Shown: positions 2,909-12,620, counted from the first letter of the stretch. The stretch: DNA of 12,620 nt from Pseudomonadota bacterium (GCA_018241565.1 JAFEDO010000164.1:1-12620); one strand, 5' to 3'. Program-made: numbers and translations. The notes: a model not told the origin generated them from the letters alone.

Positions 2909-4822
2909 ATGGATCCAAAATTAAATGATAGTAGTAAGAACATTGCTAAAGAAGATGTAAAGAAACACTCTCACCACCATGCAGACCAGCCAGTCCTCAG
3001 ACCTGAAGAAGAAAATGATCCAACTTTAGTACCGTCTGATCAAACTATTTATGAAGCTTTAGAGAGCAGAGGATTGCTTAAAACGGGACATCATGTCGCT
3101 CTTGGTCATAGGATTTCAGATGGCCATTTAGGTATGATGAGAGATGGTGAAAAATATTTTTTTATGGCGCCGGGTTATCATGTCTTATCAGCGCGCCAGC
3201 ATTTCATTGATAGCGTGTCTATAACAGAACCACTCATCAATCTGCGCGACAAACACGATGAAAATGGTATTTCATTAGTGACGATTGTTACAGTTCCTCA
3301 AGGTAGCCTTGGTTTAAGTCATAAGAGTGGTATTACGCGAATATTGCAACCTGGTGTGCATATCTTACAAACCCCACATCATTATGAAGGGACTAAAAGT
3401 GCTATAGAGCGCTACATTAAATTAGGTACTTACCATCGTATTCTTGTTTCAGCCAACGAGGTTGCTATGGCGTTTGATGGTAAGAATACCATGATAATAG
3501 GGCATGAGCAGGTCTATCGTGTTTCGGATGAATTGGGCACTGATGGAAAGCACAAACTGGTGGATGTGACGAGTGAGTACAAAAGAGGTGGTATTTTCGA
3601 AATTATTAACAATACCTTTTCATTTAATGAACAAACTGGATTTAAATCACTGCAAGTACTTGAGCATGAAATTAAAGATTTAGAGTTTACGACCACCGAC
3701 TCATCTTATTCGGGTACGGTGAAAGCTATTGTTAGATATAGAATTGTTGATCCATACGATGCCTTTGTAACAGTAAACGATGTTCACACAGATGTACTCA
3801 GACAAGCAAAAGCAACTTTGGGTGACATACTCAGACGGTTAACAGTTGATCAAGTGTCTCTAGTTCCACCCAATCAAGATCATGGTAAAGGTTCTCCATT
3901 TTCACAAGATCCGACGGATGGTTTGCGTGAGCAGAATCAGAGTTATGCGCATTGGGTAGCAACAGAATTTACAAAAGAACTTGAAAGTGTGGTGAAAAAA
4001 TGGGGCGTTGGTGATATCAACGTACGAATTGCAAAACTTGAACCCAACGACAAAACAAAGGCAAATTTAGAGTCTCGTGCAAAAGCGCGAATGGAAACTG
4101 CGACGAACGCTTCTTTGGTACAAACACAAACAGCGACGGCGGTAGCTGCAGCTGAACGAGAAAAGCAAGTTCAAGTGGTAAAAGCGCAAGCGGAAGCAGA
4201 ATCAACTGCAAAAAAAGCAGAGGGTGATGCAAGGGTTGCTTCTATTAAAGCACAAGCGGAAGCAGAATCGACTGCAAAAAAAGCAGAAGGTGAAGCAAGA
4301 GTTTCCAGTATTAAAGCAAAAGCCAATGCGGACACCGCAGTGACAAAAGCAAAAGCTGATGCAGATGTTTCTGTTATTGAGGCGGAAGCGGCAGCAAAAA
4401 TTACTCTGACGAAAGCAGAAGCTGATTCACAAGCCGTATTGTTAAAAGCTAAATCTGAAGCTGAAGCTATTAAGCTAAAAGCGCAAGCAGAAAATGAGGG
4501 AGCATTGTTGCGTGCCAACACTGAAAATCAAACGATGATGTTTCGCGCACAGTTTTATCAGAGCATGAAACTATCACCTGAACATATCACCGTGCTTGAA
4601 GATAGCCGTCTCCGTGTAGAACTTGCGAGAAATTTAAATGCGGTGGGTACAACCGTTGTTCCAGTGGATTATGGTTTAAGTGGTAACCCTGGTCTAGCTC
4701 AGCTGGCATCTCAATATCGGTTTTTCCAAAATATCACTCCGGGCTCAGGAGGAGCGGAGAAGGGTCATCACCCTCATAAAGAAGACCCATCTACAAGTAA
4801 TTTGTTAACTAATAATAAGTAA
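2909..4822 (+). CDS. flotillin-like SPFH (band 7) domain protein with C-terminal Ala/Glu-rich coiled-coil repeats, 637 aa from the chosen start
   Basis: Start moved to ATG 2909 (MDPKLND..), which has SD AGGAG 7 nt upstream; the track's 2873 start has no SD. The SPFH-like core runs about 3270-3860 (..VTIVTVPQGSLGL..RILQPGVHILQTP.. / ..VKAIVRYRIVDPYDAFVTVNDVHTDVLRQAKATLGDILRRLTVDQV..). Downstream is flotillin-type AEAEA-rich helical repeats. The N-terminal ~120 aa is hydrophilic and His-rich (KKHSHHHADQP), with no TM helix or signal peptide. Stop TAA 4820-4822 is followed by a strong terminator. Confidence 0.85.
   Translation: MDPKLNDSSKNIAKEDVKKHSHHHADQPVLRPEEENDPTLVPSDQTIYEALESRGLLKTGHHVALGHRISDGHLGMMRDGEKYFFMAPGYHVLSARQHFIDSVSITEPLINLRDKHDENGISLVTIVTVPQGSLGLSHKSGITRILQPGVHILQTPHHYEGTKSAIERYIKLGTYHRILVSANEVAMAFDGKNTMIIGHEQVYRVSDELGTDGKHKLVDVTSEYKRGGIFEIINNTFSFNEQTGFKSLQVLEHEIKDLEFTTTDSSYSGTVKAIVRYRIVDPYDAFVTVNDVHTDVLRQAKATLGDILRRLTVDQVSLVPPNQDHGKGSPFSQDPTDGLREQNQSYAHWVATEFTKELESVVKKWGVGDINVRIAKLEPNDKTKANLESRAKARMETATNASLVQTQTATAVAAAEREKQVQVVKAQAEAESTAKKAEGDARVASIKAQAEAESTAKKAEGEARVSSIKAKANADTAVTKAKADADVSVIEAEAAAKITLTKAEADSQAVLLKAKSEAEAIKLKAQAENEGALLRANTENQTMMFRAQFYQSMKLSPEHITVLEDSRLRVELARNLNAVGTTVVPVDYGLSGNPGLAQLASQYRFFQNITPGSGGAEKGHHPHKEDPSTSNLLTNNK
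4181..4510 (+). repeat. in-frame tandem repeat, 5 x 66 nt (22 aa: KAQAEAESTAKKAEG[DE]ARV[AS]SI ...), first two copies near-identical at DNA level (4181-4246 / 4247-4312)
   Basis: Direct reading. Units 1-2 differ at only a few nucleotides; units 3-5 are progressively diverged (KAKANADTAVTKAKADADVSVI / EAEAAAKITLTKAEADSQAVLL / KAKSEAEAIKLKAQAENEGALL). The 22-residue period is 2 x 11, typical of amphipathic or coiled-coil helices. Confidence 0.85.
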
Positions 4823-4835
4823 GTAGCTTTTTAAG

Positions 4836-4869
4836 AACCAACTGAATGCTTCGTTCAGTTGGTTTTTTT
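4836..4869 (+). terminator. Rho-independent terminator: AACCAACTGAA-tgcttcg-TTCAGTTGGTT followed by TTTTTTT
   Basis: 11-bp perfect stem, 7-nt loop and a U-tract, 14 nt after the flotillin-like stop codon. Confidence 0.85.
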
Positions 4870-11898: not shown

Positions 11899-12092
11899 AG
11901 AGATTTCCTGGCTCTGCTAGAAAGATACTGTTAGTTAGTTTTTAATTTGCGAAGGTAGAGCAGGCCCAAGCTACGATTTGGCTATTAGATAATATGTCTG
12001 ATTTTGTGAATTCCAAATTAGAAGCATATAAAATGCGGAGAGCTTTTTGTATTTTTACAGGCGCCATATTAGGGTTTTTTAGGAGTTAATAG

Positions 12093-12620
12093 GTGAAAAT
12101 AACGGATGTAAAACCAAAGAATGATGGGAAAAAATACTCTGTTTTTGATAGTGTCGATAAATATTGGAAAAGTGTGGAAGAGTTACAGAAAAAAATAGAA
12201 ATAAAGTCAGATCTTGATTTTACAAATCCCGTAAATTGGAGAAATTCAAATACAATATTACCGGCAATTGATTATCGCCTTCACAAAATCCAACAATTTA
12301 TCGCTAAAAGATTATTGGAAAAAGATAAGGACAATCCTCTAATAATCGAGTTATTTATTTCAAATTTAGCCGCTACTGGAAAAAATAGTGAGTCTATAAG
12401 AATGGAGGCCAAGTCAATTTTGATTGATCTGGGTAAGCTCTACGATCCACAGGTCATCGATGCTTTAAAACAGAATCTTTATCATGAAAACAGCATAATA
12501 AGGCAATTTTCAATTGAAATTTTATTGGCTAAGGAGGGTATGGCAGAAGATATAGATGAGGTCACTCATATATTGATTAAGAATTTAAGCAGCTTGGACG
12601 CTACCACAAGAATTCGAGCA
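12093..12620 (+). CDS. HEAT/ARM-like (PBS-lyase-type) repeat protein, 3'-truncated by window end; not in the supplied ORF track
   Basis: Open frame from GTG 12093 to the window end (176 codons, no stop), checked codon by codon. It is immediately preceded by an in-frame TAG (12090-12092) and an SD AGGAG (12081-12085, 7 nt spacer). Translation: VKITDVKPKNDGKKYSVFDSVDKYWKSVEELQKK..NPLIIELFISNLAATGKNSESIRMEAKSILIDLGKLYDPQVIDALKQNLYHENSIIRQFSIEILLAKEG..LSSLDATTRIRA. It shows recurring D/N-x-x-x-[IV]-R-x-x-[AS] helix-pair units typical of HEAT repeats. The GTG start is tentative. Confidence 0.5.
   Translation, partial: MKITDVKPKNDGKKYSVFDSVDKYWKSVEELQKKIEIKSDLDFTNPVNWRNSNTILPAIDYRLHKIQQFIAKRLLEKDKDNPLIIELFISNLAATGKNSESIRMEAKSILIDLGKLYDPQVIDALKQNLYHENSIIRQFSIEILLAKEGMAEDIDEVTHILIKNLSSLDATTRIRA

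Follow-up and report, generated by a model that had tools for sequence, protein, structure and literature searches.

A remote PI4-kinase-like domain in a giant multidomain protein: a candidate host-directed gene cluster on a contig of an uncultured gammaproteobacterium

The stretch of DNA considered here, which we call the window, is one whole contig (JAFEDO010000164.1; 12,620 bp) of a metagenome-assembled genome (MAG) labelled Proteobacteria/Pseudomonadota bacterium, with proteins deposited as MBS0358977-MBS0358983. From position 2909 to its end, the window is occupied by four plus-strand genes, encoding an SPFH protein, a giant multidomain protein, a WD40 protein and a truncated HEAT-like protein (Table 1). 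This block, and above all a kinase domain within the giant protein, is the subject of this report. A preliminary description, made from the sequence alone, had placed four co-directional genes for eukaryotic-type scaffold and repeat proteins here, and the layout of open reading frames (ORFs), the Shine-Dalgarno (SD) sequences and the NCBI proteins bear out that gene arrangement.

Table 1. Features of the 12,620-bp window, with the four-gene block listed first, and genes next to one family member on other contigs
Feature	Position (nt)	Strand	Details
SPFH/Band-7 protein gene	2909..4822	+	ATG start; 637 aa; MBS0358981.1 ('hypothetical protein')
Tandem repeat in SPFH gene	4181..4323	+	66-bp unit, 2.2 copies, 87% matches; Tandem Repeats Finder
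Intrinsic terminator of SPFH gene	4833..4870	+	16-bp stem, 3-nt loop, U7; RNA fold
Giant multidomain ORF	5010..10508	+	1832 aa from ATG
DrrA/SidM-GlnE-type adenylyltransferase-fold domain, catalytically degenerate	5283..6185	+	giant aa ~92-392
Protein-kinase-like domain, PI3/PI4-kinase superfamily, nearest type II PI4-kinase	6432..7679	+	giant aa ~475-890
Cys-containing leucine-rich repeats (LxxLxLxxCxxL)	7782..9134	+	giant aa ~925-1375; two blocks, ~120-aa insert between
WD40 beta-propeller of giant	9177..10169	+	giant aa ~1390-1720; Pfam WD40/beta-propeller, best E=4e-17
Giant C-terminal ~110 aa	10170..10508	+	small region and polar acidic tail ...SSTEDPSENELNKTNNLMS
WD40 protein gene	10564..11898	+	ATG, NCBI-annotated start; 444 aa; MBS0358983.1; ~7-blade propeller
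HEAT-like repeat protein gene, 5' part	12093..12620	+	GTG; 176 codons, cut by contig end; SD AGGAG at 12081-12085
Backbone outside the block, Gram-negative	1..2579		nagZ, hpt, orphan ORF, pagL; NCBI names and family matches
nagZ, 5'-truncated	ORF listed from 12		NCBI protein 308 aa; NCBIfam NF003740, E=5e-118
hpt	895-1449	+	NCBIfam NF006605, E=5e-71
Orphan ORF between hpt and pagL	1530-1946	+	138 aa; MBS0358979.1
pagL, lipid A deacylase	1980-2537	-	signal peptide; Pfam PagL, E=1e-25
Neighbours of family member P0135 (L006/L007 ENA contigs, 212 kb and 55 kb)	2398-8379; 17700-20369; 20621-24205	-; +; +	

The giant protein is made up of five parts: an adenylyltransferase-fold domain, a kinase domain, Cys-type leucine-rich repeats (LRRs), a WD40 propeller and a polar acidic tail. 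As had been remarked before, no SD sequence stands at its ATG at 5010; the NCBI start (MBS0358982.1, 1827 aa) is a TTG at 5025, and the SD sequence GAGGAA precedes it at 5012-5017.

The giant protein had been called kinase-like, and both motif conservation and fold support that term. In the window domain, the catalytic set is complete, with K516, E525, D606-x-K-P-x-N611 and D632-N-D-H-A-F. In an alignment of the window copy and 110 family segments, conservation reaches 100% at K516, D606 and D632 and 98% at N611, and the motifs of this alignment (K-x2-PE-x-PG-x-E, (P)ED-x-KP-x-N and I-D-N-D-H-A-F) are all present in the window protein. As read from the sequence, they are the Lys, catalytic-loop and metal-binding-Asp signature of protein-kinase-like enzymes. 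With all kinase catalytic residues intact, the window protein is a predicted enzyme and not a scaffold alone.

Sequence searches pass over this domain. Pfam at E<=10, PF00454 included, gave no family for giant aa 440-900, and a kinase-domain profile run against PDB sequences found no kinase. An AlphaFold2 model of giant aa 492-800, made with 14 family sequences (pLDDT 87, pTM 0.88), has a bilobal kinase fold, in which K516 lies in beta-3, D606 in the loop after the long C-lobe helix (98-110) and D632 just past strand 133-139. Foldseek searches with the model returned kinases only, the best TM-scores (0.46-0.47) being to the beta isoform of type II phosphatidylinositol (PI) 4-kinase (PI4KII). 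In a separate fold comparison, the next neighbours were CotH (12.4) and actin-fragmin kinase (11.6), followed by PIKKs, PI3Ks and PI4KIII (about 11), CtkA (10.6), Legionella MavQ (9.6) and HipA (about 9). Recognisable sequence membership in the type II PI4-kinase family proper (PF00454) was not found; as modelled, the window domain is a distinct, remote member of the PI3/PI4-kinase-like branch.

This domain defines a large family. An exhaustive HMMER search of cluster representatives (50% identity) with giant aa 1-900 picked out 571 of them at E<=1e-3, a lower bound on the number of clusters in the family, and 298 at the stricter E<=1e-10, and all best-scoring stretches fall in giant aa ~455-900. 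A homologue search with the kinase-domain alignment returned two short fragments only; the family distribution given here is that of the exhaustive representative search together with three cluster look-ups. Family proteins are mostly 1,200-5,000 aa long (median 1,961 and maximum 5,026 aa among the best 149 representatives). The only named members come from Neochlamydia, from "Ca. Jidaibacter acanthamoebae" (WP_039456529) and from gammaproteobacterial MAGs, the first two being amoeba endosymbionts. The kinase-like domain of the window protein recurs in two proteins of Neochlamydia, P0002 and P0003, at 27% identity (E=7e-32). For these two, Pfam PF27087.1 is precomputed; it is not listed for the window protein and may cover the kinase-like or another shared region. 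Two kinase-like stretches were seen in 59 of 149 representatives (P0127-P0275), the upstream copy, which scores much lower, being possibly a pseudokinase. In public records, family members are labelled only as "hypothetical," "ankyrin," "WD40" or "HEAT" proteins, and in the literature that could be searched, we found described neither the family's fold, which resembles type II PI4K, nor the fact that the domain often occurs together with a DrrA-type AMPylase.

As partner domains in the 27 members scanned, we found ankyrin repeats in 13, a DUF294/SidM_N nucleotidyltransferase in 8, LRR_6 in 7, WD40 in 4, and Ras and HEAT in 3 each; the Ras-family GTPase domains in those 3 members make a ROCO-like combination. 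Genomic neighbours were examined for three relatives. Around P0128, the second-closest relative (JGI 3300059473, 134 kb), there are genes for an ankyrin protein, for two F-box proteins and for a Lipase_3 protein that exceeds 1,256 aa; toxin-antitoxin modules also lie near it (RelB/ParE, TacA/acetyltransferase, RelB/YafQ and HicB). P0135 adjoins a 1,993-aa Ank-WGR-PARP_reg-PARP protein, an 889-aa Ras/Roc protein and a small RING-finger protein, in an unusually eukaryote-like neighborhood that also has a P450-flavodoxin-FAD reductase fusion. The gene after P0133 encodes an ankyrin protein of 1,386 aa. The stand-alone WD40 protein of the window is ~40% identical to a WD40 module fused in P0133, and in P0127, the closest relative, HEAT repeats are part of the protein itself, whereas the window encodes its HEAT-like protein in a gene apart; both observations speak for a shuffling of modules and not for a conserved operon. 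Searches of IMG/VR viral contigs and PLSDB plasmids gave no relatives, and this argues against a giant-virus or plasmid origin.

The N-terminal domain of the giant and the AMPylation domain of DrrA/SidM, a Dot/Icm effector from Legionella, are homologues both in sequence and in fold, a nucleotidyltransferase plus a helical substrate-binding domain. Relatives carry the adenylyltransferase motif G-S-x9-Y-S-D-x-[DE]. In the window copy, E-L stands at the G-S and Y-P-A-L-S at the acidic pair; the catalytic G-x(9-11)-D-x-D motif is absent, and a third acidic residue (GVRLD) is kept. Since the G-S and both motif acids are lost, AMP transfer by this copy seems unlikely. The domain was found in 47 of the 151 kinase-family representatives examined, with an intact motif in 41 of the 45 copies that cover it, and the window copy is thus a minority, pseudo-enzyme form. 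The preliminary description had read the block as scaffold proteins without an effector domain; that reading has to be given up, given a kinase domain with all its catalytic residues and a degenerate adenylyltransferase domain beside it.

In the LRR region, about nine LxxLxLxxCxxL-type units can be read, six of which are matched by a strict regular-expression scan, and the kinase-family consensus directly after the kinase domain, LxLxxCxxLTDxxL, agrees with them. LRR models on the giant protein all remained below threshold (Pfam LRR_Zer-1 and LRR_4, E~1e-3; NCBIfam XopL, 2.6e-3). The earlier assignment to Cys-type LRRs is supported by the repeat units and the family consensus, and is not secured by the Pfam and NCBIfam models. 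WD40 repeats, predicted from the start for both the giant and the 444-aa protein, have strong matches: PF00400 at 38 bits and PDB 2ymu at E=2e-25 for the propeller of the giant, and Pfam WD40 at 2.7e-59 and PF00400 at 195 bits for the smaller protein.

The C-terminal ~110 aa of the giant match no Pfam family. The protein ends in ...STEDPSENELNKTNNLMS and the SPFH protein in ...HKEDPSTSNLLTNNK; both ends are polar and acidic and have "EDPS" and an N/L/T-rich end in common. In the giant tail, E or D stands at -10, -12, -15 and -16, and Leu at -3. By composition, the two tails resemble and are compatible with the E-block type IVB signal, in which polar and small residues go with acidic ones at about -10 to -17. 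The tails are not conserved across the kinase family.

The SPFH gene has the SD sequence AAGGAGA ~7 nt before its ATG. Its product consists of a His-rich polar N-terminus, the SPFH domain, an Ala/Glu/Lys-rich coiled coil and the polar tail mentioned above; within the coiled coil, the 66-bp tandem repeat of the gene appears in translation as a 22-aa repeat. The SPFH domain covers aa 239-411 (nt 3623-4141; Pfam PF01145, E=1e-6, 29.4 bits against a cut-off of 23.6), and the sole PDB sequence match is to QmcA (8z5g, E=0.0014), over aa 414-516 as numbered from a TTG at 2873. The description of this protein as flotillin-like survives in part: the SPFH domain scores above the Pfam cut-off, and neither a flotillin-specific family (Pfam scans at E<=10) nor a membrane anchor or hydrophobic segment was found (maximal 19-residue hydropathy 1.04). 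Hydropathy scans of all four block proteins likewise agreed with the earlier statement that none has a transmembrane helix or signal peptide (maximal 19-residue Kyte-Doolittle mean <1.6).

The repeat assignments in the two last genes are less secure. The WD40 protein, whose gene has the SD sequence GGAGG at 10551-10555, begins with a short TPR-like segment consisting of one TPR_2 unit (23.7 bits against a cut-off of 27). The HEAT-like ORF matches HEAT_2 at E=5.5e-4 (20.6 bits against a cut-off of 27.7) and, weakly, alphaRep 9sah (E=0.003) and the HEAT repeats of mTOR in the PDB. TPR and HEAT repeats, both named in the preliminary description, are thus sub-threshold here, plausible and not established.

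As for transcription, the SPFH gene ends in the strong terminator of its own that had been proposed for it (-22.7 kcal/mol, z=-6.49, with 0 of 200 shuffles folding as well). The 55-nt gap between the giant and WD40 genes (10509-10563) has no stable hairpin (z=0.44), as expected from the earlier reading of a terminator-free junction, and the 194-nt spacer before the HEAT-like ORF contains no terminator-like structure. Given these two gaps without hairpins, cotranscription of the giant, WD40 and HEAT-like genes is plausible on sequence grounds. The WD40/HEAT spacer also holds a 31-codon ORF (MSDFVNSKLEAYKMRRAFCIFTGAILGFFRS; 11995-12090, plus strand) in the frame of the HEAT-like ORF, with one stop codon between them; it could encode a small hydrophobic peptide or a leader, or have arisen by chance. 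From the WD40 gene onward (10800-12600), GC skew is +0.2 to +0.32, compared to ~0 over the giant ORF, and the G-rich codons (Gly, Val, Glu and Asp) of the WD40 repeats may be the source of this rise. A consensus scan for promoters and terminators found fewer sites than in shuffles and missed the terminator at 4833-4870; it was left unused.

Outside the block, nagZ, hpt and pagL show that the contig is DNA of a Gram-negative bacterium. Identity to the best NagZ relatives is 53-60%, and those that are named belong to generic Gammaproteobacteria, Chromatiales or Thiotrichales MAGs. Given identities of just 53-60%, we take the lineage to be a gammaproteobacterium without close sequenced relatives. 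A NagZ scan of a genome collection gave as its sole match an unrelated Lachnospiraceae locus, and neither the MAG nor a close relative. The nearest NagZ relatives (58% identity) keep nagZ and hpt as a pair, with either a short gap or a gene for an MscS channel between them and a PNP_UDP_1 gene next in line; the window has the orphan ORF, pagL and the block at that place. The synteny comparison proposed earlier thus yields a conserved nagZ-hpt pair, in relatives too distant to judge whether the block is an insertion. In the window, nagZ and hpt overlap by 35 nt (895-929).

Low GC had been offered as a pointer to the block's origin, together with a comparison of its GC and codon usage with the upstream genes. 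The comparison shows no compositional island: GC is 0.33-0.43 in the block and 0.39-0.41 in the housekeeping genes, with overlapping ranges of GC at third codon positions, and along the whole contig it is 0.33-0.43, with a uniform base composition. Low GC is a genome-wide property here. No tRNA or Rfam family was found in the window. Searches of Pfam, NCBIfam and PADLOC with the orphan 138-aa protein gave no match; it ends in an extremely acidic C-terminus (...EETEDSEEEGFEEGNHSPGLGRK), in part from a 15-bp tandem repeat at 1883-1912, and it may be a fifth, small secreted protein. Two minus-strand ORFs, at 4171-4521 (116 aa) and 616-921, were discarded as antisense artefacts of coding regions, the former produced by the Ala/Glu/Lys codon repeats of the SPFH coiled coil.

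We consider it reasonably probable that the block is a secreted, host-directed ("eukaryote-like") protein cluster of an uncultured low-GC gammaproteobacterium, and the organism probably lives in or on a protist. The analysis demonstrates the gene structure, the domain homologies and folds, the conservation of catalytic residues, the loss of the adenylyltransferase motif, the family size and the named hosts; secretion, substrate, localization in the host and cooperation among the four genes are what we infer. We imagine that the kinase would act inside the host cell, phosphorylating a host target, either a phosphoinositide on the bacterium's vacuole (PI to PI 4-phosphate [PI4P], favored since the fold comes nearest to that of PI4KII) or else a protein of the host. 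The adenylyltransferase fold of DrrA docks onto Rab GTPases, so that a dead copy could persist as a binding module, and the DrrA-type domain of the window protein has perhaps been retained for Rab docking. One can envision that this pseudo-adenylyltransferase, the LRRs and the WD40 propeller supply targeting and select the site of action. The WD40, HEAT-like and anchor-less SPFH proteins might be further translocated binding or oligomerizing modules, and the SPFH protein might imitate assemblies that flotillin, stomatin or prohibitin form in the host. The family as a whole might tentatively be seen as a dual-enzyme class for host manipulation in protist symbionts, joining PI4P writing or host-protein phosphorylation to small-GTPase modification. 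It is possible, and equally a matter of conjecture, that in this class, whose members are spread over protist symbionts of Chlamydiae, Rickettsiales and Gammaproteobacteria, interchangeable LRR, ankyrin, WD40, HEAT or Ras modules set the target. If so, the window protein could perhaps be a variant in which the AMPylase has turned into a pseudo-enzyme docking module, a suggestion we would hold just as loosely.

Several observations weigh against a host-directed role. The organism's lineage is unplaced, and its best NagZ relatives (58%) lie on contigs with free-living-type genes, such as those for GGDEF and NrfD proteins. The block has the same GC and broadly similar codon usage as the backbone and forms no recognizable island. 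Free-living bacteria, too, commonly have WD40, TPR and HEAT proteins, and the best PDB WD40 match, 2ymu, is a cyanobacterial protein. The likeness to PI4KII is remote (11-13% identity, TM-score <0.5), and the next fold neighbors, CotH and actin-fragmin kinase, are protein kinases, so that the substrate may be a lipid or a protein. Most family members come from metagenomes in which lifestyle is not recorded, and the neighborhood is not conserved among the three relatives examined, so that functional coupling of the four genes is unproven.

These points bear differently on the other explanations. The preliminary description read the block as Dot/Icm (type IVB) effectors of a Legionella/Coxiella-like organism. 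The effector part of that idea gains from the eukaryote-like domains, the DrrA homology and a family known from amoeba symbionts; the affiliation with Legionella or Coxiella is not shown by NagZ, whose best matches include no named Legionellales protein and are topped by generic gammaproteobacterial MAGs. That the block encodes Dot/Icm substrates of a Legionellales bacterium is possible, if doubtful. The only solved effector homologue of the DrrA-type domain is from L. pneumophila, the organism is a low-GC gammaproteobacterium, and the tails of the giant, SPFH and orphan 138-aa proteins are acidic and polar, with the spacing of acidic residues and Leu in the giant tail given above. However, these tails vary across the family, and members of the kinase family are found in Chlamydiae and Rickettsiales as well, groups that are not known to possess Dot/Icm and use type III secretion and rvh-type type IV secretion. 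If, on the other hand, the proteins were non-secreted cytoplasmic signaling proteins of a free-living bacterium that, like cyanobacteria or myxobacteria, has a large set of repeat proteins and kinases, and if the kinase acted on bacterial targets, one could understand the ordinary envelope and salvage genes nagZ, hpt and pagL, the free-living-type contigs of the nearest NagZ relatives, the shared composition of block and backbone, and the WD40 modules, common in bacteria. This is improbable in our estimate: the named kinase-family members are all from amoeba endosymbionts or unclassified MAGs, the ankyrin, F-box, PARP, RING and Ras/Roc domains found as fusion partners or neighbors have eukaryotic targets, and the other enzyme domain is homologous to that of DrrA.

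An alternative raised and disfavored earlier, namely that the block serves in anti-phage defense or another conflict system as a sensor or scaffold lacking an NTPase, with WD40, TPR, LRR and HEAT as the sensor arms, seems quite improbable to us as well. The repeat types do match those of STAND-type defense proteins, and there are toxin-antitoxin modules near P0128; PADLOC matches are to HEAT-ARM_XIII only, by way of WD40 similarity. We rejected the HEAT-ARM_XIII matches as a defense signature, as they cover WD40 blades only. No P-loop NTPase (NACHT, NB-ARC or AAA) was found in the block proteins, nor any nuclease, TIR or other defense effector in Pfam, NCBIfam and PADLOC, and the absence of viral and plasmid relatives and of a conserved neighborhood also counts against such a system. 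Hardly credible is an artefact, whether eukaryotic or giant-virus DNA that has been mis-assembled or a set of decaying pseudogenes. Eukaryote-like domain types and a degenerate adenylyltransferase motif could be expected from either; an uninterrupted 5.5-kb ORF, SD sequences, a rho-independent terminator, uniform composition, intact kinase catalytic residues and the lack of IMG/VR relatives speak against both.

That leaves the relation of the window proteins to known systems. Compared to DrrA/SidM and other GlnE/GlnD or DUF294-type proteins, the window copy is without the G-S and motif acids, and in place of the guanine nucleotide exchange factor and P4M domains that follow the adenylyltransferase domain in DrrA, it has the kinase, LRRs and WD40 propeller. 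The window kinase, which both Pfam and the profile search against the PDB missed, differs from PI4K2A and PI4K2B in its low identity, in having no visible CCPCC-type palmitoylation motif and in its setting in a 1,830-aa bacterial protein. Secreted, cryptic PI3/4-kinases occur in Legionella, Francisella and Rickettsia (PMC11077975). The window kinase has no detectable sequence relationship to Legionella LepB, LegA5 and MavQ, Francisella OpiA or Rickettsia Risk1 and Risk2, and its architecture, adenylyltransferase-kinase-LRR-WD40, differs from that of these bacterial PI-kinase effectors.

Parachlamydiaceae have huge and fast-evolving LRR/TPR families whose proteins also contain F-box, BTB, RING and DUF294 domains; a role as effectors was suggested by a type III secretion assay in a heterologous system (PMC4209131). 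These NEX/PEX proteins (PMC4209131), the LGR proteins of Protochlamydia (PMC2216083) and the ankyrin giants of Jidaibacter belong to amoeba symbionts, the kind of organism from which the kinase family also has named members; they are very large proteins in the same style as the window protein, joining LRR, TPR or ankyrin repeats to eukaryote-directed domains, and NEX2 also holds DUF294 nucleotidyltransferase domains; a kinase domain is not described in the NEX/PEX and LGR papers (PMC4209131, PMC2216083). By analogy of layout, we would conjecture that the LGR proteins belong to the kinase family, their conserved N-terminus of ~1,350 aa and RI-like LRRs matching P0002 and P0003; no motif match was found in the text-form supplements of PMC2216083. 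With ROCO/LRRK2 proteins, the giant shares LRRs, a kinase and a C-terminal WD40 propeller, and some relatives have Ras/Roc domains or an adjacent Ras/Roc gene. However, the window protein has no Pfam match to Ras, Roc or COR, its kinase is not of the Hanks type and the domain order differs; the likeness is one of analogy, not homology. The SPFH protein shares its domain with QmcA, HflK/C, flotillin, stomatin and prohibitin, and an Ala/Glu-rich coiled coil with flotillins, but differs from them in the lack of a membrane anchor or hairpin, in its long His-rich polar N-terminus and in its polar acidic tail.

Eukaryote-like repeat proteins are well known in protist-associated bacteria, and repeat-only annotation labels conceal two enzyme domains in these giants, the kinase domain escaping Pfam and PDB sequence searches alike. 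The control that intracellular bacteria have over their vacuoles comes in large part from the rewriting of phosphoinositides and Rab GTPases, and the known bacterial PI kinases (LepB, LegA5, MavQ, OpiA and Risk1/2) are few, each confined to a narrow lineage. A type II PI4K-like kinase family would, if true, be a new and widespread host-manipulation tool, with hundreds of clusters in several phyla. The family also offers a natural series of active and dead AMPylase domains in which the origin of pseudo-enzymes could be studied, and the defined residues K516, D606 and D632 make it directly testable.

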